Assembly (NCBI GenBank): GCA_964522515.1
Contig: CAZFWC010000003.1
Coordinates: 1-52,691 of the forward strand
Direction: 5' to 3'
Length of the DNA: 52,691 nt
Source of the DNA: an uncultured Gammaproteobacteria bacterium
GTDB taxonomy: Bacteria > Patescibacteriota > Patescibacteriia > UBA2196
Part shown: positions 2,754 to 51,329 of the stretch, piece by piece
Numbering within the stretch: the stretch's first letter is position 1
How the letters are laid out: each line of letters begins with the position of its first letter
Translations under genes and position numbers: made by a program
The notes under the pieces: model-generated
Databases searched by the model: none
The model's input: the letters and a program-made list of their open reading frames with translations, nothing else
Told to the model about the DNA's origin: nothing

Positions 2754-3683
2754 TTACATCCATTTTTTCTTTTTAAAATAAATTAACATTCCAAAAGCGC
2801 CTACAAACATAATTGCAACAACAAACCAAAAATCATAAACTGAATTAATAAATGGCATTGAATTCATTGTGTTCATTCCAAAAATCGCAGCCATTAAAGT
2901 TAAAGGAAAAACAATCACAGAAAAAATAGTTAAAGTTTTAATAATTTCATTTAACCGATGAGAAAGCAAAGATTCGTGCGCTTCGTGTAAAGCATTAATT
3001 GTCTCTTTGTAATTTTCCAAAAATTCCCAAATGTCTTTTGTGTGATTAATTAAATGTTCAAGATAAATATTTAAATGAGTTGATGAATAAATTATTCCAG
3101 AGTTTTTAATTAATTTTTTAATAATACTTCTGTGCGCTTGCATTATTTTTCTAAAGTTTACAATATTTTTTTTAATGCGCATTATTTCTAAAATAATGTC
3201 TGCTTTGTTTTTTTGAACATTTAAAATTTTATCTTCAATATTATCAAGATCTTGATTAATGTGATTTAAAATTGGGAAACAATAATGCAAAAGTTGATTT
3301 AAAATTTCGTATAAAAGTTTTGAGCTGTCTGATAAAAATTTTGCTTTAGTTTGTTCATTTTTTACGCACTGATTTTGTAAATTTAAAATTGGTTCAAGAT
3401 GATTATTGTGAACTAAAACTATTTTATTTTTAGCAATAAAAAAATCAACTTCAGATGATTTTATTTCTTGAGTTTTTTTATCATAATAAGGAAACATTAA
3501 AATCATAAATAAATAATTTTTTTTCACTGTGACTTTTGGTCTTTGATTTGGTGGCAGACAATCTTGTAAATCTTTTTTATCAAAATCAAAATTTTCACCA
3601 ATCCAACCAATTTGTTTTTTTGTTGGTTTATCAATAATGTGCCAAGTTAAATTTTGGTGACTTATTTTTTGGATGTGATTCAT
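2754..3683 (-). CDS. corA: CorA-family magnesium/cobalt transporter
   Basis: 309 aa. Two C-terminal TM helices with the GMN signature (FGMNTMN) after a long soluble N-terminal domain. Confidence 0.85.
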   Translation of the reverse strand: MNHIQKISHQNLTWHIIDKPTKKQIGWIGENFDFDKKDLQDCLPPNQRPKVTVKKNYLFMILMFPYYDKKTQEIKSSEVDFFIAKNKIVLVHNNHLEPILNLQNQCVKNEQTKAKFLSDSSKLLYEILNQLLHYCFPILNHINQDLDNIEDKILNVQKNKADIILEIMRIKKNIVNFRKIMQAHRSIIKKLIKNSGIIYSSTHLNIYLEHLINHTKDIWEFLENYKETINALHEAHESLLSHRLNEIIKTLTIFSVIVFPLTLMAAIFGMNTMNSMPFINSVYDFWFVVAIMFVGAFGMLIYFKKKKWM

Positions 3684-4210: not shown

Positions 4211-4258
4211 GTCATCCCGAGCGACTCTTAGAGTTGTTAGAAGCGATGGGATCCCGTG
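4211..4258 (-). repeat. Family-4 ~48-nt element (CGGGATCCCATC..CTAACAAC..AGTCGCTCGGGATGAC), inverted copy
   Basis: GTCATCCCGAGCGACTCTTAGAGTTGTTAGAAGCGATGGGATCCCGT. It starts 3 nt after the stop of ORF 3729-4208. Confidence 0.85.
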
Positions 4259-4992: not shown

Positions 4993-7572
4993 ATGAATAA
5001 TTATTATTCTGAACCAAGTTTTTTAGAAACAATATTTTCAAACCCAATTATTGTAGTTGGTTTGTTTTTGTTGCTAATAATTATCGCAATTTTTATTGCT
5101 TTAAATATTTGGAAATATTTTGCGCGAAAAGGATTTAATTTACCCACAGAATTTAGAAAAATAATTTTAATGGTTTCAGTTCCAAAAGAATCAACAGCTG
5201 AAAAAACAGAAAATGAAGAAGGAGTAAAAGCAAGTAAAATTCAAGAACAAATTTCCTGGGCAGAAAATTTGTGGTCAAGTTTAGGTGGATTAAAAGAATC
5301 AAAAAGTTTTAAAACTTGGCTTTATGGAAGATTTGATGAATTGTCTTTAGAAATTGTAGCGCAAAACAAAATGATTTATTTTTATGTTGTTGTTCCGCAA
5401 TATTTACAACAATTTATTGAACAACAAATTCAAGCTCAGTACCCGCATTCACAAATTGAACAAGTTGAAGATTATAATATTTTTATTCCAAACGGACAAA
5501 CAAGTTCAGCGTATTTAAAATTAACAAAATCAGATGTTTTTCCATTTAAAACTTTTCGCAAAATGGAAGCAGATCCGTTAAACGCTTTAACAAATATTTT
5601 ATCAAAATTAAATGAAAACGAAGGCGCTGTAATTCAATTAATTATTAGACCAGCAAATAAAAATTGGAGCAGTAAAGCAAGAAAAGTTTCTGATCAAGTT
5701 TTGTCTGGAAAAAAAATAAAAGAAGCAGTTGGCGGTTCAGGTGACAAAGCTTGGTACGATAAAATTGCAAAATTAACAATTAAAGGAGTTGGAAGTGTTG
5801 CTTCAACAATTACGACTTCGCCTGAAAATCAAAAACAAGATTTACAAAATCAAAATCAACTTTCTTCAATGGATCAAGAGTCATTAAAATCAATTGAAGA
5901 AAAATCTTCAAAAGCAGTTGCTCAAGTAAATTTGCGAGTTGTTGTTTCATCTGAAAATGAAATTTCAGTTAAAACAAATTTGGAAAATATCTTAAATTCT
6001 TTTTCACAATATAATATTTACGAATACGGAAACAGTTTTAAAGCAGTAAAAATGTCTAAAAATAATAAATTAATAAATTCTTTTATTCACCGTTCATTAA
6101 TTAAAAATCAAAGTTATGTTTTAAACACTGAAGAAATCGCGTCAATTTTTCATTTTCCTTTGCCAAATTGTCCAACGCCAAATATTCATTGGTTAGGGGC
6201 GCGAAAAGCTCCTGCGCCAGTTAATTCGCCTCAAGAAGGTTTAATTTTAGGAAAAAATATTTATCGCGGAAAAGAAACAATTATTAGAATTAAAAAAGAT
6301 GACAGACGAAGACACGCGTATATTGTTGGAATGACAGGAACTGGAAAATCAAAATTAATGGTAAATATGATAATGCAAGATATTCAAAACGGAGAAGGTG
6401 TTTGTTACATTGATCCTCACGGCGAAGAAGTTGAAGATATTGCTTCAGCAATTCCAAAACACAGAATAAAAGATGTGATTTATTTTGATCCAGCAGACAC
6501 TGAAAGACCAATTGGATTAAATATGCTTGAAGCAAAAACAATTGAACAAAAAGATTTTGCCGCGCAAGAAATGATTCAGATTTTTTATAAAATTGTAAGT
6601 GACCCAGCAATGCTTGGTCCAATGTTTGAACATTATATGAGAAACGCGATGTTGCTTTTAATGGCTGACAAAGAAAATCAAGGAACTATTGTTGAAATTC
6701 CAAGAGTTTTTGTTGATGATGATTTTAGAAAAGCAAAATTAGAAAAATGTGATGACATTTTAGTTAAATCATTTTGGGAAAAAGAATACACAGCTTCGCA
6801 AAAAGGTTCAACTGGCGCAGATATGTTGTCGTATGTGATTTCAAAAGTTGGAAGATTTATTGAAAATGAAATGATGCGAAATGTTATTGGACAGCCGTAT
6901 TCTGGTTTTAATATTCGCGAAATAATGGATAATAAAAAAATTCTTTTAGTAAATTTATCAAAAGGAAAAGTTGGGGAAGTAAATAGTAATTTGTTGGGTT
7001 TAATTTTAGTTTCAAAACTTCAAATGGCTGCAATGGGTCGCGCAGATATTCCTCAAGAACAGCGACACGATTTTTATTTATATATTGATGAATTTCAAAA
7101 TTATGTTACAGATTCAATCGCTGTGATTTTAGCAGAAGCTAGAAAATATCGGTTAAATTTAAATATGGCTCATCAATATATTAGTCAGTTAGTTAAAAAT
7201 AATGACGCGTCAGTTAAGGAAGCGGTTTTTGGAAATGTTGGCACAATGATTTCGTTTCGTGTTGGTGTTGAAGATACTGAAGTTTTAACAAAACAATTTG
7301 CGCCGGTTTTTAATGAATTTGATTTAATGAATATTGAAAAATATAATGCTTACACTCGTTTGTTGGTGAACAACGAGCCGGTGCGTCCGTTTAATATGCA
7401 AGCGTTTCCACCAGTTCAGGGTGATTTAAAAACAGCAGAAATTATTAAAAATTATTCTCGTCAAAAATATGGAAGGCCAAAAGATGTTGTTGAACAAGAA
7501 ATTTTAGAAAGATCTAAACTCGGTCAACAAAGTGAAAATGTTGAAACAAAAGATAAAATGGATTTGAGATAG
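4993..7572 (+). CDS. membrane-anchored TraD/VirD4-like (FtsK/HerA-superfamily) P-loop ATPase, fused form
   Basis: 859 aa. N-terminal TM helix (IIVVGLFLLLIIIAIFIALNIW), then a ~350-aa domain homologous to ORF 27948-29384. Walker A is GMTGTGKS (nt 6328-6351), followed by DPHGEE. Walker B-like is FYLYIDEFQN. ARKYRLNLNMAHQYISQL resembles type IV coupling proteins. Confidence 0.75.
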   Translation: MNNYYSEPSFLETIFSNPIIVVGLFLLLIIIAIFIALNIWKYFARKGFNLPTEFRKIILMVSVPKESTAEKTENEEGVKASKIQEQISWAENLWSSLGGLKESKSFKTWLYGRFDELSLEIVAQNKMIYFYVVVPQYLQQFIEQQIQAQYPHSQIEQVEDYNIFIPNGQTSSAYLKLTKSDVFPFKTFRKMEADPLNALTNILSKLNENEGAVIQLIIRPANKNWSSKARKVSDQVLSGKKIKEAVGGSGDKAWYDKIAKLTIKGVGSVASTITTSPENQKQDLQNQNQLSSMDQESLKSIEEKSSKAVAQVNLRVVVSSENEISVKTNLENILNSFSQYNIYEYGNSFKAVKMSKNNKLINSFIHRSLIKNQSYVLNTEEIASIFHFPLPNCPTPNIHWLGARKAPAPVNSPQEGLILGKNIYRGKETIIRIKKDDRRRHAYIVGMTGTGKSKLMVNMIMQDIQNGEGVCYIDPHGEEVEDIASAIPKHRIKDVIYFDPADTERPIGLNMLEAKTIEQKDFAAQEMIQIFYKIVSDPAMLGPMFEHYMRNAMLLLMADKENQGTIVEIPRVFVDDDFRKAKLEKCDDILVKSFWEKEYTASQKGSTGADMLSYVISKVGRFIENEMMRNVIGQPYSGFNIREIMDNKKILLVNLSKGKVGEVNSNLLGLILVSKLQMAAMGRADIPQEQRHDFYLYIDEFQNYVTDSIAVILAEARKYRLNLNMAHQYISQLVKNNDASVKEAVFGNVGTMISFRVGVEDTEVLTKQFAPVFNEFDLMNIEKYNAYTRLLVNNEPVRPFNMQAFPPVQGDLKTAEIIKNYSRQKYGRPKDVVEQEILERSKLGQQSENVETKDKMDLR

Positions 7573-8261: not shown

Positions 8262-10085
8262 ATGACCTCGCAAGAATTAAGACGAAAATACATAGATTTT
8301 TTTGTAAAAAAAGGGCACACTGAAATTCCTTCTGCTTCTTTGGTTCCTGAAAATGATCCTTCAACTTTATTTATTTCAGCAGGAATGCAACCAATTGCTT
8401 CTTTTTTAATGGGTGAAAAACATCCATCTGGAAATAAATTAGTTAATTCTCAAAAATGTATTCGCACTGATGATATTGACGAAGTTGGTGATAAATTTCA
8501 CCACACTTTTTTTGAAATGCTTGGGCACTGGTCGCTCGGAGATTATTGGAAAAAACAAGCAATAAAAATGAGCTGGGAGTTTTCAACACAAGAGTTGGGT
8601 TTAGATAAAAATAAATTAGCAGTAACGGTTTTTGAAGGAAATGTGAATGCTTCTAAAGATGAAGAATCAATTCAAGTTTGGAAAAGTTTAGGTTTTCCAG
8701 AGCAGAGAATTATTAAATTAAATAAAAAAGAAAATTGGTGGGAGCCAGCAGGTGAAAGTGGTCCGTGTGGTCCAGACACAGAAATGTTTTATTGGACAGA
8801 TAATAAAAATCCTGCGCCAGAAAAGTTTAATCCAGAAGATTCTCGCTGGTTTGAAATCGGAAATGATGTGCTGATGCAATATAATAAAATTGCTAAAAAT
8901 AAATATATTCCAGCTAAACAGAAAAATATTGATAATGGTACAGGTTTTGAAAGGGTTGTAGCTGTTACGAATAATTTAGATGATAATTATTTAACTGATT
9001 TGTTTTTGCCTATTATTAAAAAAATTGAAGAGTTAAGTGAAAAAAATTACAAAAATGTTTCTGAAGAAATTAAAAAAAGTATAAGAATAATTGCAGATCA
9101 TTTAAGAGCAGCGACTTTTATTTTAGCAGACAACACAAAAATTATTCCGTCAAACACAGATCAAGGATATGTTATTAGAAAATTAATTCGCAGAGCAATT
9201 CGGCACGGACGAATGATTGGAATTAAAGAAAATTTTACGCGCAAAATCGCAGAAGTTGTAATTAATTTAATGTCAGAAATTTATCCAGAATTAGAAAAAA
9301 ACAAAAAATTTGTTTTAGATAATTTTGAATTAGAAGAAGAAAAATTTACAAAAACTTTGCAACAGGGGTTAAAAAAATTTCAGAAATTAGAAATCAGAAA
9401 TCAGAAATTAGGACAGAAAAAAATTAGCGGCGCAGAAGTATTTGATTTATTTCAAACTTACGGTTTTCCAATTGAATTAACAAAAGAACTAGCAAGTGAA
9501 AAAGGTTTAGAAGTTGATGAAAAAGGTTTTGAAAAAGAAATGAAAAAACATCAAGAACTTTCTAGAACCGCGACAGCTGGAAAATTTAAAGGTGGTTTAG
9601 CAAATCAATCTGAACAAACAATTAAATATCACACAACAGCGCATTTAATGTTGGCTGCTTTGCGAAAAGTTTTAAATGAAAATATTCAACAAAAAGGTTC
9701 AAATATAAATGAGGAAAGATTGCGATTTGATTTTTCTTATTCTGAAAAAATGACAGATGAACAAAAAGCAGAAGTTGAAAATTTAGTTAATAATTGGATT
9801 AAACAAGATTTAAAAATTATTTGTGAAGAAATGAGTTTGGACGAAGCTAAAAAACAAGGAGCAACCGGAGCTTTTGAAAATAAATACGGAGAAAAAGTTA
9901 AAGTTTTTACAATTGGCTCCTCCTTCGCTAAAGCTACGGCGGACAGGGAAAATAATAATATTGTTAGTAAAGAAATTTGCGGAGGTCCGCACATTAAACG
10001 CACAGGAAATTTAGGAAAATTTAAAATTAAAAAAGAACAATCAAGTTCTGCTGGGATTAGGAGAATTAAAGCAGTTTTGGAATAA
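8262..10085 (+). CDS. alaS: alanine--tRNA ligase, short form lacking the C-terminal C-Ala/DHHA1 region
   Basis: 607 aa. The N-terminal class II catalytic core (FFVKKGHTEIPSASLVP, FHHTFFEMLGHWS) and the editing domain (HTTAHLM, ICGGPH) are present. The ORF ends shortly after the editing domain. Contains repeat insertions at 9381-9413 and 9919-9947. Confidence 0.9.
   Translation: MTSQELRRKYIDFFVKKGHTEIPSASLVPENDPSTLFISAGMQPIASFLMGEKHPSGNKLVNSQKCIRTDDIDEVGDKFHHTFFEMLGHWSLGDYWKKQAIKMSWEFSTQELGLDKNKLAVTVFEGNVNASKDEESIQVWKSLGFPEQRIIKLNKKENWWEPAGESGPCGPDTEMFYWTDNKNPAPEKFNPEDSRWFEIGNDVLMQYNKIAKNKYIPAKQKNIDNGTGFERVVAVTNNLDDNYLTDLFLPIIKKIEELSEKNYKNVSEEIKKSIRIIADHLRAATFILADNTKIIPSNTDQGYVIRKLIRRAIRHGRMIGIKENFTRKIAEVVINLMSEIYPELEKNKKFVLDNFELEEEKFTKTLQQGLKKFQKLEIRNQKLGQKKISGAEVFDLFQTYGFPIELTKELASEKGLEVDEKGFEKEMKKHQELSRTATAGKFKGGLANQSEQTIKYHTTAHLMLAALRKVLNENIQQKGSNINEERLRFDFSYSEKMTDEQKAEVENLVNNWIKQDLKIICEEMSLDEAKKQGATGAFENKYGEKVKVFTIGSSFAKATADRENNNIVSKEICGGPHIKRTGNLGKFKIKKEQSSSAGIRRIKAVLE
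9381..9413. repeat. Heptamer array ([CT]AGAAAT)x4 inside the alaS CDS
   Basis: CAGAAATTAGAAATCAGAAATCAGAAATTAGGA, translated as KLEIRNQKLG. Confidence 0.8.
9919..9947 (+). repeat. Family-1 fragment inside the alaS CDS
   Basis: CCTCCTTCGCTAAAGCTACGGCGGACAGG is identical to 41425-41453. It is translated as SSFAKATADR within the editing-domain region. Confidence 0.9.
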
Positions 10086-11804: not shown

Positions 11805-11833
11805 TTGACATTATTTTTAATATAATTTATACT
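11805..11833 (+). promoter_or_regulatory. candidate promoter of the infA-rpmJ-rpsM-rpsK-rpsD-rpoA-rplQ operon
   Basis: TTGACA-17 nt-TATACT, about 105 nt upstream of the infA ATG. Confidence 0.6.
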
Positions 11834-11942: not shown

Positions 11943-12230
11943 ATGTTAAAACAACAAAATTCAAATCAAAATTTAAATAGTAAAAATACAAATGAAGATT
12001 TTAGTAATTTTAAGATAAATAAAAAAGGATTTATTGAAGTTAGCGGTGAAGTTTTAGAAACCTTGCCAAGTATTACTTTTCGTGTTAAATTAGAAAATGA
12101 TCACGAAATTTTGGCCCGTTTATCAGGCAAGATGAGAATGCACAGAATTTTGCTTCTTCCTGGAGACAAAGTTAAAATAGAAATGAGTCCGTATGATTTA
12201 GATAAAGGTAGAATTACTTACAGGTATTAA
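11943..12230 (+). CDS. infA: translation initiation factor IF-1 with N-terminal extension
   Basis: The C-terminal 70 aa are typical IF-1 S1-like ([63 protein letters not shown]). About 25 extra N/K-rich residues precede this if the ATG at 11943 is used. Confidence 0.85.
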
Positions 12231-12237
12231 AAAATTT

Positions 12238-12281
12238 ATCCGCCGTAGCAATTAAAGGATTGCCAGGGAGCGAAGGCGGGC
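12238..12281 (+). repeat. Family-1 GC-rich arm (CCGCCGTAG...GCGAAGGCGGG) upstream of rpmJ
   Basis: TATCCGCCGTAGCAATTAAAGGATTGCCAGGGAGCGAAGGCGGG. This is the near-exact reverse complement of the left arm of copies 13479-13668 and 43416-43584. Confidence 0.85.
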
Positions 12282-12290
12282 GCACAATTA

Positions 12291-12404
12291 TGAAAGTTCG
12301 TTCGTCAGTTAAAAAAATGTGTAAAGATTGTAAAGTAATCCGTCGTAAAGGACGGGTTGTTGTTATTTGTAAAAACCCAAGACATAAACAAAGACAAGGA
12401 TAGG
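12291..12404 (+). CDS. rpmJ: 50S ribosomal protein L36
   Basis: Not in the ORF track (37 aa). Translation is [37 protein letters not shown]. Canonical position between infA and rpsM. Confidence 0.9.
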
Positions 12405-12411
12405 AACTTTC

Positions 12412-12506
12412 CCGCCTTCGCCTCTAAAAAACTCTACTGGACTACGGCGGGCGAGTTCCTAGTTCTTTTTAAATAAAATTTTAAATTAAAATTTTATTTA
12501 AAAAGC
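12412..12506 (+). repeat. Family-1 complementary arm plus AT hairpin downstream of rpmJ
   Basis: CCCGCCTTCGCCTCTAAAAAACTCTACTGGACTACGGCGGG, then the perfect AT palindrome CTTTTTAAATAAAATTTT / AAAATTTTATTTAAAAAG. Confidence 0.85.
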
Positions 12507-12517
12507 ATTTAAATTTT

Positions 12518-12907
12518 ATGCCTAGAATTGCAGGATCTAATTTACCAAATGAAAAAAGAGTTGAAATCGGTTTAACTTATATTTTTGGAATTGGAAAAAG
12601 TTTATCTAATAAAATTTTAAAAGAATTAAAAATTAATCCAGACACGCGAGTTAAAGATTTGCAAGAAAATGATGTGAACAAATTAAGACAAAAAATTGAA
12701 AAAGAATTTATTGTTGAAGGTGATTTAAGAAGGGAAAGAGTTGGGAATATTAAACGCTTAAAAGAAATTAATAGTTATCGAGGTTCTCGTCACGCAAAAG
12801 GGTTGCCAAGCAGGGGTCAAAGAACTCGTAGCAATACAAGAACTTTACGCGGAAACAAAAGAGTTGGAGTTGGATCTGGAAGAAAAAGCGCAGATCAAAA
12901 AACATAA
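12518..12907 (+). CDS. rpsM: 30S ribosomal protein S13
   Basis: 129 aa. [26 protein letters not shown] is a typical S13 N-terminus. Operon context agrees. Confidence 0.92.
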
Positions 12908-12965
12908 AGACGCAGAAAAACTCGGAACGCCCCGCTGGGTTTTACGCTGAACTACGCTGAAAAAA

Positions 12966-13478
12966 ATGTCAGAAAATAATAAAAAAAATTTAGAAAATAA
13001 TAAAAAAAAATCTGAAAAAAAAGATGAGGATATTAGTATTGATAAAAAGAAAAAACAAGAATTAGAAAGTGAAGAAACAGCCACAGTAGTTGTTAAAGGT
13101 AAAAAAAAGAAAAAACAAGCGCCTTTTTTAAGAGGCGGAAGAGGTCAAGCTCATATTAAATCATCTTACAATAATACAATTGTTTCAGTCACTGATTTAA
13201 ATGGAGCAGTTTTAATTTGGGCAACTGCTGGAAAATGCGGTTTTAAAGGTCCTAAAAAATCAACACCTTACGCAGCAGGAACAATTATTAAATCACTAGC
13301 AAATAAAATTAAAGAATTAGGGATAAAAGAAGTTGATGTTTTTGTAAAAGGCGTCGGCACTGGTCGAGAGTCGGCAATTCGAGCTTTAGGCACAATTAAT
13401 GTTTCTGTTGTTTCAATTAAAGATGTAACGCCAATTCCTCACGGTGGTTGCAGACCAAAGAAAAAACGAAGAGTTTAA
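12966..13478 (+). CDS. rpsK: 30S ribosomal protein S11 with Lys/Glu-rich N-terminal extension
   Basis: 170 aa. S11 core ([30 protein letters not shown] ... [16 protein letters not shown]) preceded by ~40 low-complexity residues. Confidence 0.9.
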
Positions 13479-13668
13479 ATCGCTTACCCTCCTTCGCTCC
13501 CTAGCAACTCTTTAATTGCTACGGCGCCTGTCCGCCGTAGCTTTAGCGAAGGAGGAGGCAAGCTCCTGTGTTTTTTAAATTTTAAACACAAGAGTTCCTG
13601 CCTGTCGGCAGACAGGTATCCGCCGTAGTCCAGTAGTCCCGAGTACTCGGGATTAGGGGCGAAGACGG
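13479..13668 (+). repeat. Family-1 composite GC-rich palindromic spacer element, copy A (rpsK-rpsD)
   Basis: Modules in order: CCTCCTTCGC..GCTACGGCG/CCGCCGTAGC..AGCGAAGGAGG, the CTCCTGTGTT-loop-AACACAAGAG hairpin, CCTGCCTGTCGGCAGACAGG, CCGCCGTAGTCCAGTAG, CCCGAGTACTCGGG, GCGAAGACGG. Confidence 0.9.
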
Positions 13669-13678
13669 AAAAATTATT

Positions 13679-14311
13679 ATGGCAAAATATTTAGGTCCAA
13701 AATGTAAAATTTGCAGAAGACTTGGTGAAAAACTTTGTTCAAAAGGTGAACGAGGTTTAGGCGCCAAGTGCGCTTTGGTTAAAAGAAATTATCCTCCGGG
13801 ACTTCACGGACAAAAAGGACACTCTCGTTTAACTGATTTTGGAGTGCATTTAAAAGAAAAACAAAAAGTAAAAATAATATATTTTGTTTTAGAAAAACAA
13901 CTTAAAAAATATTTTAATTTAGCGTCTAAAAATAAAATGGACACTGGCTCAAAATTTATAGAACTTTTGGAAAGAAGGTTAGATAATGTGATTTTTCGTT
14001 TAGGTTTAGCAAAATCGCGACCACAAGCTCGTCAAATGGTAAGCCACAGTTTATTTTTAATTAATAATAAAAAAATTAATGTTCCATCTTGTGAAATTAA
14101 ATCAGGAGATGTAATTTCAATTCGTAAAGACAAAAGTTTAAATAAAGGAATTTTAGCTGAGAATTTAAAAAATATTAAACAAGATGAAATTTCAGGTTGG
14201 TTAGATTGGGATGAAAAAGAAAACAAAGCAAAAATTGTTAGTTTGCCAAAAGATAAAGATTTGGAAGTTGGAATTGACACAAGACTTGTTGTAGAATATT
14301 ATTCAAAATAA
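13679..14311 (+). CDS. rpsD: 30S ribosomal protein S4
   Basis: 210 aa. MAKYLGPKCKICRRLGEKLCSKGERG zinc-finger-type N-terminus plus an S4 RNA-binding domain. Confidence 0.92.
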   Translation: MAKYLGPKCKICRRLGEKLCSKGERGLGAKCALVKRNYPPGLHGQKGHSRLTDFGVHLKEKQKVKIIYFVLEKQLKKYFNLASKNKMDTGSKFIELLERRLDNVIFRLGLAKSRPQARQMVSHSLFLINNKKINVPSCEIKSGDVISIRKDKSLNKGILAENLKNIKQDEISGWLDWDEKENKAKIVSLPKDKDLEVGIDTRLVVEYYSK

Positions 14312-14451
14312 TCGCCTAACCCTCCTTCGCTTCAACTCTAAAAAAATTCTAGCTACGGCGGACAGGCTTCTAGTTCTAAATTTAAAAGCATTAAAATTTT
14401 ATCCACCGTAGTCCAGTAGAGTTGTTTAAGGGCGAAGGCGGATAAACAAAT
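14312..14451 (+). repeat. Family-1 composite spacer element, copy B (rpsD-rpoA)
   Basis: TCGCCTAACCCTCCTTCGC...GCTACGGCGGACAGG...CCACCGTAGTCCAGTAG...GGGCGAAGGCGGATAAACAAAT. Confidence 0.9.
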
Positions 14452-14458
14452 AAATTTT

Positions 14459-15247
14459 ATGAATATAATTCCCACTGCTCAAAAAAAAGAATTTATTTTT
14501 TCTGAAACGCCTAACAAAGGCAAATTTATTATTGAACCGCTTTTCCCTGGTTTTGGTTTAACAATTGGAAACGCTTTAAGAAGAGTTTTGCTTTCTTCAC
14601 TTGATGGAGTTGCAATTACTTCAATTAGAATAAAAGGCGCTGACCACGAATTTACAACAATTGACGGAATTAAAGAAGACTTGGTAGATATTATTTTAAA
14701 TTTAAAACAAATTAGATTTGATGTAACTGGAAATTTTGAAGAACCAATTAAAATGCAATTAAAAGTTAAAGGCGCGAAAGAAATTAAGGCAAAAGATTTT
14801 AAAAAAACCGCTGGAGTAAAAGTTGCTAATCCAGATTTAATTATTGCTCAAGCAACTGATTCTAAAGCAGAATTTGAATTAGAAGCTTGGATTGAAAAGG
14901 GCAGAGGTTATTTGCCAACTGAAATGATGGAACACAAAGAAAAAGAAATTGGTGTAATTACAATTGATGCATTTTTTTCACCAATTAAAAGAGTTGCAAT
15001 TGATACTGAAAATGTTCGTGTTGGCGAAATGACAAATTGGGATAAATTAATTTTAAATTTAGAAACTGATAGCACCATTTCTTGTGAGGATGCTTTAAAT
15101 AAAGCTACTCAAATTTTAGTTGAGCAATTTCAGTTTTTGTTAGAGAATAAAATAGAAAGTTCAGAAAAATTAGAAAAAGAAAAAGAAGACTTAGTGGAAG
15201 AAAAGCCAAAGAAAAAAGCTAAATCAAAAAAAGAAGAAATCGCCTAA
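14459..15247 (+). CDS. rpoA: DNA-directed RNA polymerase alpha subunit, N-terminal domain only
   Basis: 262 aa. Alpha-NTD motifs present (FIIEPLFPGFGLTIGNALRRVLLSSL). The C-terminus is a K/E-rich tail. No HhH alpha-CTD sequence is visible. Confidence 0.88.
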   Translation: MNIIPTAQKKEFIFSETPNKGKFIIEPLFPGFGLTIGNALRRVLLSSLDGVAITSIRIKGADHEFTTIDGIKEDLVDIILNLKQIRFDVTGNFEEPIKMQLKVKGAKEIKAKDFKKTAGVKVANPDLIIAQATDSKAEFELEAWIEKGRGYLPTEMMEHKEKEIGVITIDAFFSPIKRVAIDTENVRVGEMTNWDKLILNLETDSTISCEDALNKATQILVEQFQFLLENKIESSEKLEKEKEDLVEEKPKKKAKSKKEEIA

Positions 15248-15401
15248 TCCTCCTACACCTTCAATCCTAAAAAAATTCTAGCTACGGCGGGCAAGCTCCT
15301 GTGTTTTTTAAATTTTAAATACAAGAGTTCCTGCCTGTCGGCAGACAGGTATCCGCCGTAGTCCAGTAGGATTTTTTAAGGGCGAAGGCGGATAAACAAA
15401 T
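15239..15401 (+). repeat. Family-1 composite spacer element, copy C (rpoA-rplQ)
   Basis: ATCGCCTAA (which contains the rpoA stop), TCCTCCTACACCTTC, GCTACGGCGG, central hairpin, CCTGCCTGTCGGCAGACAGG, CCGCCGTAGTCCAGTAG, GGGCGAAGGCGGATAAACAAAT, then the rplQ ATG. Confidence 0.9.
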
Positions 15402-15752
15402 ATGCGACATCAAAAAACAAAAAAAACATTAGGCAGAAAAACTGGACCGCGAAAAGCATTATTTAAAAATTTATTGCAGTCTTTGATTTTGTATGAAAAA
15501 ATAAAAACAACAGAAATAAAAGCAAAAGAAATTAAACCTTTAATGGAAAAAATGGTTACACGCGCTAAAAATGACTCTTTACACAATCGTCGTGAAATAA
15601 TGAAAATAATTCCAACAAAAAATGCTGTTAAAAAATTATTTGAAGTTGTTGGACCAAAGTACAAAGAAAGAAAAGGCGGGTACTTAAGAATTATAAAATT
15701 AAATCCAAGAAAAGGGGACGGAGCTAAAATGGCAATTATAGAATTTATTTAG
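15402..15752 (+). CDS. rplQ: 50S ribosomal protein L17
   Basis: 116 aa. MRHQKTKKTLGRKTGPRKAL is a typical L17 start. Follows rpoA. Confidence 0.92.
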   Translation: MRHQKTKKTLGRKTGPRKALFKNLLQSLILYEKIKTTEIKAKEIKPLMEKMVTRAKNDSLHNRREIMKIIPTKNAVKKLFEVVGPKYKERKGGYLRIIKLNPRKGDGAKMAIIEFI

Positions 15753-16692: not shown

Positions 16693-17936
16693 ATTTCCTC
16701 TTTAACAATTTTTCTATCATCCCAATCAATCATTTTTCCATTTGCTAAACACATTTTTTGTTCAGCGCCTTTGCCAGTAAGTAAAATTAAATCATTAGGT
16801 TTTGCAAGTAGCAGAGCTTTTTGAATTGCTTCTCTTCTATCTAATATTTTATATAATTTATTTTCTGGAACTTTAGATGCAACTTGATTAATAATTTCTT
16901 GTGGATTTTCATCGTACGGATCTTCGTTGGTTACAATTACAGTGTTTGCATTTTCTGATGTTAATTTTCCAAGAATTTGTCTGCGAGATTTGTCGCGTCC
17001 TCCACCAGCTGATCCTAAAATATGAATTATTTTATTGTGTTCCACATTTTTTACTGTTTCATATAATTTTTCAATTGCTTTTGGTTCAAAAGCGTAATCA
17101 ATTAAAATTTTAATTTTTAAATCATTTTTAATAAATTCTAATCTGCCGGGTAAAGGTTTTAAATTTTCAACTGCTGATTTGACAGGGTAAATTTTATCTT
17201 CTGCAACTTTTAAAACTTTAGCCACAGCAACACCAGCTAAAATATTATATTTATTATAATCACCGAGTAAATTAATTTTTAAATTATTTAATTTAACATC
17301 TGCATTTGAATTTATTCCGTAAGTTATTTTTTTGTCTGCCCAAAAATTTAAAAAATATTCTGCGTGTTCGTCATCTAAATTTGCAATTATTGTTTTTTTT
17401 ATTTCTAATTTCTTTTTTTTGCATTTAGATAAATATTTAAATAATTTGCCTTTTGTAGTTTTATAATTTTCAAAACTGCCGTGTGATTCAATGTGCTCTG
17501 GATAAAGATTTGTAAAAACTAAAATATCATAATTAATTCCCAAATGTCTGAACTGTTTTATTCCTTCTGAACTTGTTTCAATAATTGCGACTTCACATTT
17601 ATTTTTAACCATTTGTTTTAATAATTTTTGCAAACCAAATCTTCCAAGCATTGTCATTTTTTTATTATTTAACCATTCTTTTTTATTTATTTTAAATAAA
17701 GTAGTTGTGCTCATTCCAACTTTAAAACCTGCTTTTTCTAAAATTTGCGCAATAAAATAGCACGAAGAAGATTTTCCAGTTGTGCCGGTTACTCCAATTA
17801 CAATCATTTTGTTTGATGGATAATTATAAACTAAAGCGCTAATTTTAGCCAAGATCCAATGATAAATTGGCTGTAATTTTTCAAACAGTTTTTTTGGAAT
17901 TATTTTTTTAATTAAATTTAGGAGTTTGTTTATCAT
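16677..17936 (-). CDS. Mur ligase family protein (MurE-like, no N-terminal domain)
   Basis: GVTGTTGKSSS P-loop, ETSSEG, and Mur ligase middle and C-terminal domains. Start moved to the ATG at 17936, which has a GGGGAGAG SD-like upstream. Upstream codons run into the repeat at 17941-18052. Confidence 0.8.
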   Translation of the reverse strand: MINKLLNLIKKIIPKKLFEKLQPIYHWILAKISALVYNYPSNKMIVIGVTGTTGKSSSCYFIAQILEKAGFKVGMSTTTLFKINKKEWLNNKKMTMLGRFGLQKLLKQMVKNKCEVAIIETSSEGIKQFRHLGINYDILVFTNLYPEHIESHGSFENYKTTKGKLFKYLSKCKKKKLEIKKTIIANLDDEHAEYFLNFWADKKITYGINSNADVKLNNLKINLLGDYNKYNILAGVAVAKVLKVAEDKIYPVKSAVENLKPLPGRLEFIKNDLKIKILIDYAFEPKAIEKLYETVKNVEHNKIIHILGSAGGGRDKSRRQILGKLTSENANTVIVTNEDPYDENPQEIINQVASKVPENKLYKILDRREAIQKALLLAKPNDLILLTGKGAEQKMCLANGKMIDWDDRKIVKEEIKKLA

Positions 17937-17940
17937 TTTA

Positions 17941-18052
17941 GAGTCTCTCCCCATTTTCAAGGGGGAGATTAAGAGGGGGTTAATAATTTTAATTAAATAA
18001 TTTATTAACCACCCCCAACCCCTCCTTCAAAAGGAGGGGAGGATATTTTTTT
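17941..18052 (-). repeat. Family-2 triple-hairpin GC-rich element, copy 1
   Basis: GAGTCTCTCCCCATTTTCAAGGGGGAGATTAAGAGGGGGTTAATAATTTTAATTAAATAATTTATTAACCACCCCCAACCCCTCCTTCAAAAGGAGGGGAGG. It spans the junction between the Mur ligase gene and the upstream membrane-protein gene. Confidence 0.9.
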
Positions 18053-20761: not shown

Positions 20762-20927
20762 TTCTCCCCTCCTTTTCAAGGAGAGTTTTATTATTAGGAC
20801 TTTTTAGAGTCTCTCCCCATTTTCAAGGGGGAGACTAAGAGGGGGTTAATAATTTTAATTAAATTATTTATTAACCACCCCCAGCCCCTCCCTGCCTACC
20901 GGACAGGCAGGCTTGAAAAGGAGGGGA
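20762..20927 (-). repeat. Family-2 element, copy 2, with nested palindromic module and an extra hairpin
   Basis: Same core as copy 1 with few substitutions. CCTGCCTACCGGACAGGCAGG is inserted in the loop of the last hairpin. An extra CTCCCCTCCTTTTCAAGGAGAG hairpin abuts the ruvA ATG. Confidence 0.9.
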
Positions 20928-20971
20928 GATTTAATTTAATCTTACCAAATCAGACTTGAAAAATCAATAAT

Positions 20972-21314: not shown

Positions 21315-21343
21315 TTGTCAAATTTGAATTAAAAGTATAGAAT
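21315..21343 (+). promoter_or_regulatory. candidate promoter for the 21420-22726 operon
   Basis: TTGTCA-17 nt-TAGAAT. The family-3 hairpin would lie in the 5' UTR. Confidence 0.5.
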
Positions 21344-21363
21344 GAAAGTGGTAGCAACAAACA

Positions 21364-21388
21364 GGCTCCACCCAAGAGGGATGGAGCC
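21364..21388 (+). repeat. Family-3 hairpin
   Basis: GGCTCCACCCAAGAGGGATGGAGCC followed by AAC, 32 nt before the ATG at 21420. Confidence 0.85.
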
Positions 21389-21419
21389 AACTAATAATTT
21401 AAAAGTGTAAGATAAAATT

Positions 21420-22012: not shown

Positions 22013-22726
22013 ATGCAAGAACGCCTACAAAAAATTTTATCAAGATTTGGTGTTGCTTCTCGCAGAAAAGCAGAAGAGCTTATTTTAAATAAAAAAGTTT
22101 TAGTAAATAATAAAATTGCAAAATTAGGTCAAAAAGTTGATTTAAAGAAAGATATTGTTGAAGTAAAACACAGAAGCCTGTCCGCCGAAGCTGGGAATTT
22201 TAGGGTTGAAGCGAAGGAGGAACAGGCGGTTTATTATTTAGTTAATAAACCTGTGAATTTTACTTGCTCTGTTTCTGATAAACACGCTAAAAAATTAATT
22301 ACTGATTTAGTCCCTAAAAATCCAAAAGTTTGGCCAGTTGGGAGATTGGATAAAAATTCAACGGGTTTAATAATTTTAACTAATGACGGAAATTTAACAA
22401 ATAAATTAACTCATCCAAAATTTAAACACGAAAAGGAATACGAAGTTGCGGTTGATAAAAAAATTTCTGAAAAATTTTTGCAGAAAATGAAAAAGGGAAT
22501 TAAATTAGATGAAGGAGTTGCTAAAGCTGATAAAATTATTGCGTTAAATAAAAATAAATTTATAATAATTTTACATCAAGGTTGGAAAAGACAAATCCGC
22601 AGAATGTGTGAGAAATTAAATTATAAAGTTTTGGAATTAAAAAGAACAAGAATTGGAAAAATAAAATTAAAAGATTTAAAAGAAGGCAAGTTTGAAGAAA
22701 TAAAAAAGCCACTGGATGTAAATTAG
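22013..22726 (+). CDS. RsuA/RluB-family pseudouridine synthase with S4 domain
   Basis: 237 aa. S4 domain (RLQKILSRFGVASRRKAEELI) and catalytic GRLDKNSTGLIILTNDG. Has an in-frame GC-rich insertion at 22177-22229. Confidence 0.88.
   Translation: MQERLQKILSRFGVASRRKAEELILNKKVLVNNKIAKLGQKVDLKKDIVEVKHRSLSAEAGNFRVEAKEEQAVYYLVNKPVNFTCSVSDKHAKKLITDLVPKNPKVWPVGRLDKNSTGLIILTNDGNLTNKLTHPKFKHEKEYEVAVDKKISEKFLQKMKKGIKLDEGVAKADKIIALNKNKFIIILHQGWKRQIRRMCEKLNYKVLELKRTRIGKIKLKDLKEGKFEEIKKPLDVN
22177..22229 (+). repeat. Family-1 fragment (inverted orientation) inside the pseudouridine synthase CDS
   Basis: CCTGTCCGCCGAAGCTGGGAATTTTAGGGTTGAAGCGAAGGAGGAACAGGCGG, translated as SLSAEAGNFRVEAKEEQA between the S4 and catalytic domains. 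Confidence 0.85.
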
Positions 22727-23933: not shown

Positions 23934-23979
23934 TTAGAAAAGAGAAAATTTAGAAAAGATAAAACTAAAAGAACAAAAT

Positions 23980-24004
23980 GACTCCACCCAAGAGGGATGG
24001 AGCC
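23980..24004 (+). repeat. Family-3 hairpin
   Basis: GACTCCACCCAAGAGGGATGGAGCC followed by AAC, 23 nt before the secD ATG at 24027. Confidence 0.85.
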
Positions 24005-24026
24005 AACATTAGAAATTTGCTTTTTT

Positions 24027-25694
24027 ATGACTACACAAAACAAAAACAGAAGTAAGATTTTAGCTATTTTTATTTTAGCTGTTTTTTGTGCTTTAATTGT
24101 TTTACCAACTGCGCCGAAAGGAACGCCGTTTGAAAATTTTTGGAATAAAACAAAATTTCATTTAGGTTTGGATTTGCAAGGTGGAACGCATTTAGTTTAT
24201 CAAGCAGATGTTTCTGAAATTCCGTCATCAGACCAGGCTTCAGCAGTTGAAGGTGTGCGAGATGTGATTGAACGCAGAGTCAACGCATTTGGAGTAGCAG
24301 AACCAGTTGTGCAAACAAATAAAGTTGGTGGCAAATACAGAGTAATTGTTGAATTAGCAGGAGTTAAAGATGTAAATCAAGCAATTAAAATGATTGGCGA
24401 AACTCCGCTTTTAGAATTTAAAGAACAAGATTCAAATTTTAAACAAGAATTAAATAATGAGCAGAAAAAAGAAATTGAAGATTTTAATTCTCAAACGCAA
24501 GCAAAAGCTGAAGATATTTTAAATAAAGTTTTGCAACCAGGAGCAAATTTTGCAGAATACGCAAAACAATATTCAGAAGATGTTGGTTCAGCAGAAAACA
24601 ATGGTGATTTAGGTTTTGTAAAACGCGAAATGTTTGTGCCAGAATTTGATGAAGTAATTTTTGATAAACAAAAAGAGCCAGGAGTTTATCCTGAATTAGT
24701 TAAGTCGCAATTTGGTTTTCATATTATTAAAAAAATTGAAGAAAGAGGCGAAGGAGATAATTTAGAAATTCATTCAGCTCATATTTTATTTAAAACAAAA
24801 TCAGAACAAGAATATTTAGGCGAAATGCAGTGGGTGCGAACAGATTTGTCTGGAAAACATTTGGCGCGCGCTCAAGTGCAATTTGACCCTCAAACAGGTG
24901 AGCCAGAAGTTGGTTTAGAATTTAATAAAGAAGGAAAAGATTTATTTGCGGAAATTACAACGCGAAATGTTGGAAAACCAGTTGCAATATTTTTAGATGG
25001 TTTTGCAATTTCAATTCCAACTGTGAACGAGCCAATTCGCGAAGGAAACGCAGTAATTTCTGGCAGATTTAATATCCAAGAAGCAAAAGAGTTAGTTCAA
25101 AGATTAAACGCAGGCGCTTTGCCAGTTCCAATTAATATTATTTCACAACAAACAATTGGGGCGTCTTTAGGTGAAGAATCAATGCAAAAAAGTTTGTTTG
25201 CGGGGTTAATTGGTTTGTTGGTTGTGGCTTTATTTATGATTTTGTATTATCGTTTACCAGGTTTGTTAGCGGTTTTTGCTTTAGCAATTTACACAGTGAT
25301 TATTTTAACTATTTTTAAAATCACGCCAGTTACTTTAACTTTAGCTGGTGTTGCTGGTTTTATTTTATCAATTGGAATGGCAGTTGACGCAAATGTTTTG
25401 ATTTTTGAAAGATTAAAAGAAGAATTAAAAAATGGCAGGGAATTATTAGACGCAATTGAACAAGGTTTTAAGCGCGCGTGGACTTCAATTCGTGATTCAA
25501 ATTTATCAACCTTGATAACTTGCGGAATTTTATTTTGGTTTGGAACTTCAATTATTAAAGGATTTGCGTTAACGCTAGGAATTGGTATTTTGGTTTCAAT
25601 GTTTTCTGCGATTGTAATTACAAAAAGTTTTCTGAAATTATTTAATAATAAAAATAACAAATTAAATTGGTTATTTGGAATTAAAAAAATATGA
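24027..25694 (+). CDS. secD: protein translocase subunit SecD with embedded parvulin-like (PpiC-type PPIase) segment
   Basis: Start moved to the ATG at 24027; earlier codons lie in repeat hairpin 23980-24004. SecD motifs: GLDLQGGTHLVYQ, RVNAFGVAEPVVQ, and a C-terminal 6-TM SecD/F domain. Residues ~165-268 (nt 24489-24800) carry GDLGFVKREMFVPEFDEVIF and QFGFHIIKK. Confidence 0.88.
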   Translation: MTTQNKNRSKILAIFILAVFCALIVLPTAPKGTPFENFWNKTKFHLGLDLQGGTHLVYQADVSEIPSSDQASAVEGVRDVIERRVNAFGVAEPVVQTNKVGGKYRVIVELAGVKDVNQAIKMIGETPLLEFKEQDSNFKQELNNEQKKEIEDFNSQTQAKAEDILNKVLQPGANFAEYAKQYSEDVGSAENNGDLGFVKREMFVPEFDEVIFDKQKEPGVYPELVKSQFGFHIIKKIEERGEGDNLEIHSAHILFKTKSEQEYLGEMQWVRTDLSGKHLARAQVQFDPQTGEPEVGLEFNKEGKDLFAEITTRNVGKPVAIFLDGFAISIPTVNEPIREGNAVISGRFNIQEAKELVQRLNAGALPVPINIISQQTIGASLGEESMQKSLFAGLIGLLVVALFMILYYRLPGLLAVFALAIYTVIILTIFKITPVTLTLAGVAGFILSIGMAVDANVLIFERLKEELKNGRELLDAIEQGFKRAWTSIRDSNLSTLITCGILFWFGTSIIKGFALTLGIGILVSMFSAIVITKSFLKLFNNKNNKLNWLFGIKKI

Positions 25695-27947: not shown

Positions 27948-29384
27948 ATGGATTTTCTTTTTAATTTTTTAACTAACGCTGGTCTTGATGCAAGTTCACC
28001 CTTGTCTGTTTTATGGTTTATTTTTAAACACGGAGGATTTATTTTTATTCTAGCTGCTTTATTTTTTGGTTTTAAAGAGATTTGGACTAATTCGCGACAG
28101 GCAAAATACGCTGCTAAATCTGAATGGGTTTATTTAGCAATTGATGTTCCAAAAAATAATGAACAATCTTTTAAAGCAGTGGAACAAATTTTTGCGAATT
28201 TAGCAGGAGCTTCAAAAAATCCAGATACTTTGGATAAATATTGGACAGGTTACCACCAGCCAGCGTTTAGTTTAGAATTAGTTTCAATTGAAGGTTACAT
28301 TCAGTATATTATTCGTTCGCCCAAAGTATTTAGAGATTTAGTTGAAGCCGCAATTTACGCGCAGTATCCTGACGCTCAAATTACTGAAATAGAAGATTAC
28401 ACAAAAGGAATTGATCCGGAAACATTTAAAGAAAAAGGTTACGATCTTTGGGCCGCGCAATTTGGTTTAATAAACGATGAAGCTTATCCAATAAAAACTT
28501 ATCCGCTTTTTGAACATCCAATTTCACAATTAACAGTTGATCCTTTGGCCGCTGTTTTAGAAATTTTTAGCAGAATGAACAAAGGCGAACAAGCTTGGTA
28601 CCAAATTATTATTAAACCAGTTGGCGACAATTGGAAAGAAAAATCTCAAGCAAAAGTTAAAGAACTAATTGGCACTCCAGTTTCAGCTCCCAAGCAAGGA
28701 TTAATTGATAAAACTCTTGACGCGCCAGGAAGATGGGCAGGTCAAGTCGGTGATTTATTTATTCCAGTTGGTGGCAAAGATGATAAAAAAGATGATAAAA
28801 AAATGGAAGTGCCGTCAAAAATGCTTTATTTATCTCCAGGTGAAAAAGCAGCAGTTGAAGCAATTGATCGCAAGACTGACAAAATTGGTTTTATTTGTAA
28901 AATCCGTTACATTTATTTAACTAAAGGAGTAAAGTTAGCTAAAACAAAAGGTGTTTCTGGTTTTATTGGAGCTTTAAAACAATATAATTTATTAAATTCA
29001 AATGGGTTTTATCCAATTGGAGTTACTAAAACAAGCTCTGAGTGGTGGCAGAATTTGTATAAAAAATATGGAGAAAAAGTTGTAACAAAAATTCAGAAAA
29101 AAACTTTAGCAAATTTTAAATCTCGTTCGTCTTGGGCAGGAGCTGATAAAGAAGGCTTTATTTTAAACACAGAAGAATTAGCTTCGCTTTATCATTTTCC
29201 TTTAATGGGAGTTGTTGCGCCAACAGTTAAAACAACAGATGCTAAACGGGGCCAAGCTCCAATGGGTTTGCCAGTTGAAACTGACGAAGTTGTTGAGGAA
29301 AATAATTCCGAGTCCTTGGAAGAAAAAATTGAAATTAATAATGGACAAAAAATAATTGCGCCACCAAGTAATTTACCAATATGA
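27948..29384 (+). CDS. membrane protein homologous to the N-terminal half of ORF 4993-7572
   Basis: ATG at 27948 preferred over the TTG at 27936. TM segment plus a soluble domain. Blocks shared with the 859-aa protein include AQYP[HD][SA]QI.[QE][VI]EDY, W.QIIIKP / VIQLIIRP and NTEE[IL]AS[IL][FY]HFPL. Confidence 0.7.
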   Translation: MDFLFNFLTNAGLDASSPLSVLWFIFKHGGFIFILAALFFGFKEIWTNSRQAKYAAKSEWVYLAIDVPKNNEQSFKAVEQIFANLAGASKNPDTLDKYWTGYHQPAFSLELVSIEGYIQYIIRSPKVFRDLVEAAIYAQYPDAQITEIEDYTKGIDPETFKEKGYDLWAAQFGLINDEAYPIKTYPLFEHPISQLTVDPLAAVLEIFSRMNKGEQAWYQIIIKPVGDNWKEKSQAKVKELIGTPVSAPKQGLIDKTLDAPGRWAGQVGDLFIPVGGKDDKKDDKKMEVPSKMLYLSPGEKAAVEAIDRKTDKIGFICKIRYIYLTKGVKLAKTKGVSGFIGALKQYNLLNSNGFYPIGVTKTSSEWWQNLYKKYGEKVVTKIQKKTLANFKSRSSWAGADKEGFILNTEELASLYHFPLMGVVAPTVKTTDAKRGQAPMGLPVETDEVVEENNSESLEEKIEINNGQKIIAPPSNLPI

Positions 29385-31174: not shown

Positions 31175-31192
31175 AAATTTCTAATTCATATG

Positions 31193-31225
31193 AGTTGGCT
31201 CCATCGCTCTCGCGTGGAGCCAACT
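31193..31225 (+). repeat. Family-3-related hairpin
   Basis: AGTTGGCTCCATCGCTCTCGCGTGGAGCCAACT. Confidence 0.7.
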
Positions 31226-31268
31226 TGTTAAGTCAACTAATAAAAATTTTTTACTGAAATAACAAATA

Positions 31269-31327
31269 GACTCCACCCCCCCAACCTGCCCGCCAGTGAT
31301 CTTTGGCAGGCGGGGAGGGATGGAGCC
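31269..31327 (+). repeat. Family-3 hairpin with nested GC-rich palindrome in its loop
   Basis: GACTCCACCCCCCCAACCTGCCCGCCAGTGATCTTTGGCAGGCGGGGAGGGATGGAGCC followed by AAC, 24 nt before the ruvX ATG. Confidence 0.85.
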
Positions 31328-31350
31328 AACAATCAGGTGGAGAAACTTAT

Positions 31351-51317: not shown

Positions 51318-51329
51318 ACCTTTAAAAAA

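Follow-up and report, generated by a model that had tools for sequence, protein, structure and literature searches.

The window analysed here, a 52,691-nucleotide contig of 28% GC in which infA, rpmJ, rpsM, rpsK, rpsD, rpoA and rplQ lie consecutively, carries two GC-rich arms on either side of rpmJ, the gene for ribosomal protein L36, and the original prediction had placed this gene in the loop of a single cassette split by it into two pairing halves. We find instead a solo right-type arm upstream of the gene and, downstream of it, a left arm and a centre that lack a right arm; the rpmJ locus is two partial cassettes in consecutive spacers, not one split cassette. We consider it likely that both arms derive, as incomplete copies, from a mosaic palindromic repeat that is GC-rich, non-autonomous and specific to this lineage and that resembles repetitive extragenic palindromes (REPs), REP doublets forming hairpins (REPINs), bacterial interspersed mosaic elements (BIMEs) and miniature inverted-repeat transposable elements (MITEs), with any effect on L36 being a by-product. 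The arms are not a conserved rpmJ switch; the regulatory reading lacks comparative support and draws conditional support from folding.

The upstream arm (CCGCCGTAGCAATTAAAGGATTGCCAGGGAGCGAAGGCGGG, 41 nucleotides (nt); 12240-12280, + strand) begins CCGCCGTAG, finishes GCGAAGGCGGG and ends 9 nt 5' of the rpmJ ATG, and the downstream arm (CCCGCCTTCGCCTCTAAAAAACTCTACTGGACTACGGCGGG; 12411-12451, + strand) begins CCCGCCTTCGC, finishes CTACGGCGGG and starts 7 nt 3' of the rpmJ stop codon. Between them lies rpmJ itself (12290-12403, + strand; 37 amino acids (aa), 114 nt including the stop, ATG at 12290), with PF00444 recorded on its orthologue in the genome L081. The inner ends of the arms (12270-12280 and 12411-12421) complement each other at 11 of 11 positions and the outer ends (12240-12248 and 12442-12450) at 9 of 9, and the coordinates, sequences, 9-nt and 7-nt distances and 11-bp and 9-bp complements originally reported proved exact. 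This complementarity is far beyond chance. The window contains 12 copies of the motif CCGCCGTAG, where 0.00 are expected, and 13 of GCGAAGGMGG, where 0.05 are expected, and the duplex between the two flanks of rpmJ reaches a z of -7.5 relative to shuffled sequences. All 287 nt of the region (12231-12517) recur unchanged in eight independent assemblies from one population, which excludes an assembly artefact.

Aligned in one orientation, eleven long arms from the window form one family with a unit of about 41 nt (41-51 nt among the long arms) of the form CCGCC-GTAG-interior-GCGAA-GGCGG. The termini CC(G/T)CCTTCGC and CTACGGCGG are common to all of them, the interiors fall into alpha and beta subtypes, and a third form has the palindrome CCCGAGTACTCGGG nested within it. 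The upstream arm of rpmJ is a forward unit (CCGCC-GTAG ... GCGAA-GGCGG) with an alpha interior, standing solo without a partner in its own spacer, and the downstream arm is a reverse unit (CCCGCC-TTCGC ... CTAC-GGCGGG) with a beta interior. The upstream arm had correctly been recognised as the reverse complement of a left arm found elsewhere (90% over 40 nt to 13487-13526) and, in the arm alignment, matches the left arms located at 13486 and 43422; the downstream arm is complementary to 14381-14441 at 77% over 61 nt. Arm alignment and repeat comparison within the window also bear out the earlier suggestion that arms are re-used as modules in both orientations. At rpmJ the conserved termini are complementary and the interiors are not. 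Since all units share their termini, oppositely oriented units are complementary at both ends wherever they are placed, and rpmJ seems looped because two such units happen to share these complementary termini.

In a complete cassette, two units in inverted orientation enclose a structured centre, and the whole fills the spacer from stop codon to start codon, with (A)TCGCYTAA as its boundary on the stop side and GGCGGAWAAACWWAAT on the start side. Five full cassettes are present, four of them in spacers (before rpsD, rpoA, rplQ and pilM) and one on the opposite strand, 5' of dnaB. As inverted dimers, they have structured centres of 40-90 nt containing an A/T hairpin, to which the palindrome CCTGCCTGTCGGCAGACAGG is added in four of the five, the rpsD-rpoA cassette being without it, and each folds as a long compound hairpin, with energies from -40 to -87 kcal/mol. 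The cassette of the rpsK-rpsD spacer (13479-13678, + strand), which folds to -87.3 kcal/mol where relatives have 6-10 nt, contains, besides its left arm (13486-13526) and a CCCGAGTACTCGGG-bearing right arm (13619-13669), a short module in inverted orientation (13528-13557), an A/T hairpin and the palindrome CCTGCCTGTCGGCAGACAGG. The others occupy the rpsD-rpoA spacer (14312-14458, + strand; left arm 14320-14362, right arm 14402-14442), the rpoA-rplQ spacer (15240-15401, + strand; left arm 15249-15291, right arm 15352-15392), a stretch 5' of dnaB (36469-36625, - strand, ending 9 nt before the dnaB ATG) and the spacer between the open reading frame (ORF) 42045-43415 and pilM (43416-43584, + strand), the last sharing 94% identity with the rpsD cassette over 125 nt. 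Downstream of rpmJ, the remnant of a cassette centre (12452-12517, + strand), which includes a 19-bp A/T hairpin (approximately 12463-12507), resembles the centre of the rpsD-rpoA cassette; the right arm is missing and the ATG of rpsM (S13; 12518-12907, + strand; PF00416) follows directly 3'. The left boundary TCGCCTAA of the rpoA-rplQ cassette provides the last two codons and the stop of rpoA, so that the end of this gene, ATC GCC TAA (15240-15247), is cassette-derived; the rpoA of relatives stops two codons earlier.

A comparison of S13 sequences places the organism as a Patescibacteria/Parcubacteria-type bacterium from lake water. Its nearest lineages (S13 85-88% identical) share the gene order of the window from a TrwB-like ATPase, by way of alaS and a 406-aa ORF, as far as rpsI, and at the six junctions from infA to rplQ they have AT-only spacers of 3-30 nt, with cassettes nowhere in the operon. 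Their infA-rpmJ spacers measure 18 or 10 nt and their rpmJ-rpsM spacers 8 or 5 nt, without flanking complementarity, and the latter spacer is 5-8 nt long in four related lineages. A third lineage (87%) has 8 nt 3' of rpmJ and an unrelated GC-rich element 5' of it, and an 80% relative has long spacers of different sequences. The spacers of the relatives being short and AT-only, the cassettes are gains in the lineage of the window. More broadly, the repeat family is absent from this operon in eighty species-level genomes (S13 at most 73% identical). The original prediction had named a lack of flanking complementarity in related genomes as evidence that would count against it, and this lack is what we observed, both in the relatives at 85-88% S13 identity and in 77 of 79 species-level representatives, with only L045 and L057 giving significant values through unrelated repeats of their own. 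Repeats seem to land recurrently in the infA-rpmJ spacer. In L045 (3649-3994), AT-rich direct and inverted repeats of the GATTATTAGGATTTTTGGGATAA type surround rpmJ, and in L057 (3612-4000) CCTGCCCGCCATAGCC repeats do so. L099, another of the Patescibacteria, has one GC-rich element 5' of rpmJ and another inside the 5' end of rpsK (1-57 and 596-631).

Copies of the module also lie inside genes. A short form, CCTCCTTCGC-TAAAG-CTACGGCGG-ACAGG, was found at four places in the window. In alaS, the short module CCTCCTTCGCTAAAGCTACGGCGGACAGG (9917-9958, + strand) is in frame and adds 14 residues, SSFAKATADRENNN, that are absent from three aligned orthologues; the closest relative has the same short module at another site of alaS. 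A module with a nested palindrome lies in frame in the Toprim domain of recR (34262-34320, - strand), exactly where alignment to PDB 3vdp leaves a 17-residue gap. From the window sequence alone, a variant module lies in frame in the linker of an S4/pseudouridine-synthase-like protein (22170-22232, + strand), and a window scan placed a short module in the leader of, or just 5' of, a prepilin-like gene (41420-41453, + strand). Reading frames and orientations differ among the intragenic copies, and modules are nested inside modules at 34262-34320 and in the CCCGAGTACTCGGG-bearing arms. The same lake metagenomes contain four to six other copies of the downstream (beta) arm of rpmJ, about 93% identical to it and differently flanked. 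Taken together, the in-frame copies in AlaS and RecR, the different site in alaS, the nesting and the other metagenome copies amount to mobile-element behaviour. Small, streamlined Patescibacteria genomes, usually viewed as tightly packed, can carry bursts of GC-rich mosaic repeats that lengthen nearly every spacer of a core ribosomal operon and enter AlaS and RecR in frame. Such repeats also fragment metagenome assemblies, as contigs end at the cassette; several of the assemblies L091-L098, all of the same species, stop within or just after the cassette downstream of rpsK.

To rationalise this distribution, we propose that the family inserted into infA-rplQ operon spacers that were originally 3-30 nt long, the infA-rpmJ spacer gaining a single forward unit and the rpmJ-rpsM spacer a reverse unit together with a cassette centre. 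The repeats would have spread either by hairpin or single-strand DNA transposition through a trans-acting enzyme or by recombination. In the polycistronic mRNA the arms may then pair together, fold locally or pair with other copies, and an effect on L36 synthesis or on mRNA processing would arise as a by-product.

The alternative pairings are apparent when the RNA is folded in different contexts (equilibrium predictions, with z-scores from shuffles and local folds restricted to pairs within a span of 100 nt). Taken alone, 12231-12517 has a minimum free energy (MFE) of -83.1 kcal/mol with rpmJ looped out (z = -5.6; 0 of 200 shuffles fold as well), and its long-range helices have pair probabilities of approximately 0.99. 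The local-only fold reaches -76.1 kcal/mol, 7 worse, so that for this segment folding does not favour only local hairpins, an outcome that had been named in advance as contrary to the looped structure. The GAACTTT that follows the rpmJ stop (12404-12410, + strand) pairs with rpmJ codons 2-3, AAAGTTC (12293-12299), in the long-range fold and with GAGTTC (12453-12458) in the local fold. The upstream arm forms a duplex of -69.0 kcal/mol with the alpha-type left arm at 13487-13526 versus -47.6 kcal/mol with its partner at rpmJ, and in a fold of 12200-14470 (2.3 kb) it pairs with 13487-13525, 1.2 kb off, while the downstream arm folds on itself. The looping-out of rpmJ proposed originally thus holds as the MFE of the isolated 287 nt, but the 2.3-kb fold prefers the left arm of the rpsD cassette. 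The arms around rpsD and rpoA are complementary as well (-35.7 and -31.6 kcal/mol), and the "gene in the loop" therefore follows from cassettes occupying consecutive spacers. In these predictions the rpmJ loop is one of several competing structures, whose in vivo form would be set by the kinetics of transcription and translation. A search for RNA sequencing runs that contain the locus found none. What looks like a striking gene in a hairpin loop can accordingly be reduced to palindromic repeats colonising consecutive operon spacers, which calls for caution in structure-based scans of AT-rich genomes.

Several observations weigh against the arms being repeat copies with a merely incidental effect. 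None of the 40 window ORFs scanned against Pfam, across 52.7 kb, is a transposase or a REP-associated tyrosine transposase (RAYT), the Y1 type included, and no target-site duplication could be recognised when the junctions were compared with the empty sites of relatives; for both reasons mobility is something we infer. A transposase was likewise not found among the annotated genes of the same-population assemblies. There is zero population variation across the region in eight assemblies, and therefore neither constraint nor neutrality is measurable. At the RNA level, the rpmJ pair (-46.8 kcal/mol) is the strongest and shortest-range flanking pair, only rpmJ has flanking arms without a partner in their own spacer, and the 7-bp helix AAAGTTC/GAACTTT leaves the AUG in an internal loop of the long-range fold. 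Finally, a distance of 9-17 nt separates the end of each of the six start-proximal arms from an ATG, a spacing that could reflect selection for an RNA-level role.

Such a role could be that of an exapted RNA switch or translational coupling, in which pairing of the arms over rpmJ within the operon mRNA hides the initiation region of the gene, and we regard this as unlikely. L36 would then be made only after a ribosome completing infA, 10 nt 5' of the outer helix, has opened the fold; in another version, RNase III would cut the helix and uncouple rpmJ from its neighbours. It agrees with a switch that the long-range fold is the MFE structure of 12231-12517 with the probabilities and z-score given above, that the AUG occupies a 12-nt internal loop between an 11-bp and the 7-bp helix, that neither arm has a partner in its own spacer, and that the A/A' pairing is perfect at rpmJ, whereas the A:A' pairing between left and right arms of ordinary cassettes has a U.C mismatch. 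However, the arrangement is absent in all close relatives, whose rpmJ leader is bare AT, the choice of partner shifts with transcript context, and rpsD and rpoA are bracketed by the same complementarity. Furthermore, the local module hairpins hold a GUA/GAA internal loop that energy models probably under-credit, and rpmJ's own translation would hold the helix open.

A known system that resembles the model originally put forward for rpmJ is the E. coli infC-rpmI-rplT operon. There, an initiation-factor gene precedes a small cistron for a ribosomal protein, and pairing between distant segments occludes initiation until the upstream gene is translated. That structure is conserved and tied to L20 autoregulation, whereas the rpmJ arms are repeat copies that are absent in the nearest relatives and imply no regulator; comparable conservation was not found at rpmJ. 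The best reading of the predicted structures is that any effect of the arms on L36 expression would be incidental.

The original prediction had further proposed that an SD-like (Shine-Dalgarno-like) sequence, here GAAGGCGG, could be sequestered. This sequence is mismatched and makes a poor Shine-Dalgarno, and the cassette end GCGAAGGCGG, located at -19 to -10, mismatches the anti-Shine-Dalgarno core. A census of the 56 gene starts in the window found approximately 45 with A/T-only leaders and no Shine-Dalgarno and about six with an AAGGAGG-type sequence 4-8 nt from the start; initiation in this organism is therefore mostly Shine-Dalgarno-independent. The rpmJ genes of relatives have no Shine-Dalgarno at all. 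With GAAGGCGG poor and both most genes of the window and the rpmJ of relatives doing without such a site, we do not find its sequestration convincing as a regulatory logic. With a stable helix lying 9 nt from the AUG, initiation could nevertheless be impeded.

The position of the cassettes also permits a more general interpretation, in which stable GC hairpins punctuate a 28% GC transcript as stabilisers, processing sites or attenuators and are retained as a class between ribosomal-protein cistrons, the rpmJ arms being two of them. Cassettes do occupy nearly every spacer of one highly expressed operon, they lie between co-directional genes, the five full cassettes all point the same way with respect to the gene that follows, and REPs have been reported as RNA elements (PMC3733652). 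We nonetheless judge this interpretation very improbable: relatives do without cassettes, copies occur inside coding regions too and in both orientations, no terminator-like T-tracts follow the arms, and five out of five in one orientation is weak statistics. An event at the DNA level, in which a recombinase or replication slippage flips or deletes the rpmJ segment, deserves almost no credence. Inverted repeats of 11 and 9 bp do flank a 130-bp segment, but they are too short for homologous recombination, the orientation of rpmJ is identical in all eight independent assemblies, contig-level data contain no such joints and no recombinase gene lies nearby. Among the lake-metagenome contigs compared with the locus, which were mostly rpmJ genes of other organisms and other copies of the arms, there were no empty-site or inverted alleles.

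Several families of bacterial repeats offer parallels to the palindromic repeat that we favour as the source of the arms. Rickettsia palindromic elements insert in frame in essential genes and add a tolerated peptide, as the module of the window does in AlaS and RecR; they measure 100-150 bp and are AT-rich like their host, whereas the window module is 30-60 nt long and much more GC-rich than the genome, and there is no sequence relationship. Neisseria Correia/NEMIS, pneumococcal BOX/RUP and enterobacterial ERIC elements are non-autonomous, have terminal inverted repeats and lie near gene starts or ends, where they are co-transcribed as hairpins that are possible RNase III substrates, with BOX being modular in an A/B/C style. 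For the window family, in contrast, neither a target-site duplication nor a defined target was found, and the sequences are unrelated. The terminal inverted repeats typical of MITEs (CCKCCTTCGC / GCGAAGGMGG) are present, again without a recognisable target-site duplication.

In anatomy the family matches REP, REPIN and BIME elements. Like them, the window family comprises short GC-rich palindromic units at high copy number, mostly as inverted pairs 20-100 bp apart whose conserved spacers have small stem-loops and which can form a single large hairpin; it lies between co-directional ORFs, with some copies in replication or repair genes, combines module types as mosaics and contains the GTAG tetranucleotide. 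REP superfamilies have been described that form dimers with structured spacers, have copies inside repair genes and are located between co-directional ORFs (PMC3733652), and the many dispersed copies, inverted dimers and foldable spacer of the window family correspond to the REPIN anatomy described by Bertels and Rainey 2011 (PMC3116915). In the GTAG-tagged REP superfamily the unit forms a stem-loop of 20-40 bp, whose stem measures 6-13 bp, and has an unpaired GTAG or close variant at one terminus (Di Nocera et al. 2013, PMC3733652), whereas the GTAG of the rpmJ family is internal, between a 5-bp outer and a 2-bp inner stem, the outer stem is below the published range and the interiors measure 20-30 nt. 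The canonical layout with terminal GTAG exists only in the nested sub-module GTAG-TCCCGAG-TA-CTCGGGA (13633-13652 and copies). The window, moreover, contains no RAYT gene and its host is a 28% GC Patescibacterium; membership in the GTAG-tagged REP superfamily is not established. In the literature on Patescibacteria or the candidate phyla radiation (CPR) we found no description of such repeats.

A short hairpin core of the unit recurs beyond the window. It spans approximately 24-30 nt; in the 24-nt form, N5-GTAGC-YTTR-GCGAA-N5', the outer stem measures 5 bp and is followed by an internal loop (3x3, GUA/GAA), a second stem of 2 bp and a tetraloop. A gapped pattern run against metagenomes (loci L101-L220) and IMG/VR (L221-L523) was too permissive for long arms and exposed the short module, the form with a 5-nt gap, CCGCCGTAG-CYTTR-GCGAAGG, being strongly over-represented (32 of 121 and 20 of 116 matches). 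The contigs with this form range from 39 to 73% GC and have unrelated flanks. With the 14-nt centre as the sole anchor, fully paired 5-nt flanks were found in 12 of 102 and 12 of 98 distinct IMG/VR matches, where approximately 0.7 were expected, and the outer-stem flanks covary across unrelated contigs (CCGCC/GGCGG, CCTCC/GGAGG, CCCCC/GGGGG, ATTCC/GGAAT and CCGAC/GTCGG). One phage contig with a P22-like portal (L289) has three copies of the core (3262-3275, 5643-5663 and 6742-6765). No transposase was found beside the multi-copy loci, this contig included, and neither Rfam nor the literature searched by sequence supplied a name for the hairpin. The core might be an undescribed structured module spread across phyla, either defining a REP-like superfamily that is new and mobilised by an enzyme of its own or acting as a DNA or RNA motif to which a protein binds, and elaborated here into cassettes organising the expression of the ribosomal operon including rpmJ, a proposal that we hold to be distinctly doubtful. 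Its recurrence in very different genomes and in phage contigs makes the origin and the mobilising enzyme a tractable question.

Other identities were considered for the arms and rejected. A simple scan found no stem with a T-tract at the arms, as an intrinsic terminator would have, and integron attC-like sites were dismissed in view of the lack of a tandem array, an integrase gene or a GTTRRRY-type core. TIGR-Tas systems, reported from CPR bacteria, consist of a tandem interspaced array beside a Tas gene (PMC12045711); the copies here are dispersed, one per spacer and not tandem, and no Tas (Nop-domain) protein is encoded in the window. Rfam gave no match over the whole window at gathering thresholds and nothing relevant in 12200-15450 in a permissive search up to E = 5. 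ARAGORN detected no tRNA or tmRNA in the window, and a comparison with PLSDB plasmids returned only near-chance matches.

At the head of the operon, a promoter-like site (TTGACA-17-TATACT, 11 of 12 consensus positions; 11805-11833, + strand) lies upstream of infA and, as a consensus match, is the likely start of the arm-bearing transcript; promoter-like sites are no more numerous in the region than shuffling would predict. The infA ORF (11943-12230, + strand, stop codon 12228-12230) encodes initiation factor IF-1 of 95 aa, with PF01176 recorded on its orthologues. Its N-terminal extension (11943-12020) comprises about 25 residues, is rich in N, Q and K and is found in close relatives too.

The genome holds a whole library of GC-rich repeat elements. 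The rpsM-rpsK spacer contains a 40-nt GC-rich insertion of a different module type (12920-12959, + strand) that is absent in L081, with which the flanking AGACGCAGAAAA is common. A second, unrelated family of GC-rich hairpin cassettes (17936-18048 and 20802-20933; motifs CTCCCC..GGGGGAG, GAGGGGG..CCACCCCC and CCCCTCC..GGAGGGG) has two copies, each at the end of a gene, that share 97% identity over 90 nt. More GC-rich module families occur at 21343-21397, 23971-24014 and 31184-31347, at 4211-4257 versus 51271-51318, at 41164-41204 and at the above 12920-12959. These families comprise GACTCCACCC...GGGATGGAGCC, an inverted pair of GTCATCCCGAGCGA that is 85% complementary, solitary CCTGTCTGCCGACAGGCAGG palindromes and ACGCTGA-type modules.

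Among the other genes of the window are two paralogous genes for TrwB/VirD4-like coupling ATPases (4993-7572 and 29381-31174), which share 71% identity over 300 nt; the second is preceded by a 482-aa ORF without a Pfam match. In an unusual fusion, the N-terminal P1 segment and the P1 head of a SecD-like protein (23997-25694) are separated by a peptidyl-prolyl isomerase domain of the PpiC type (residues ~159-249).

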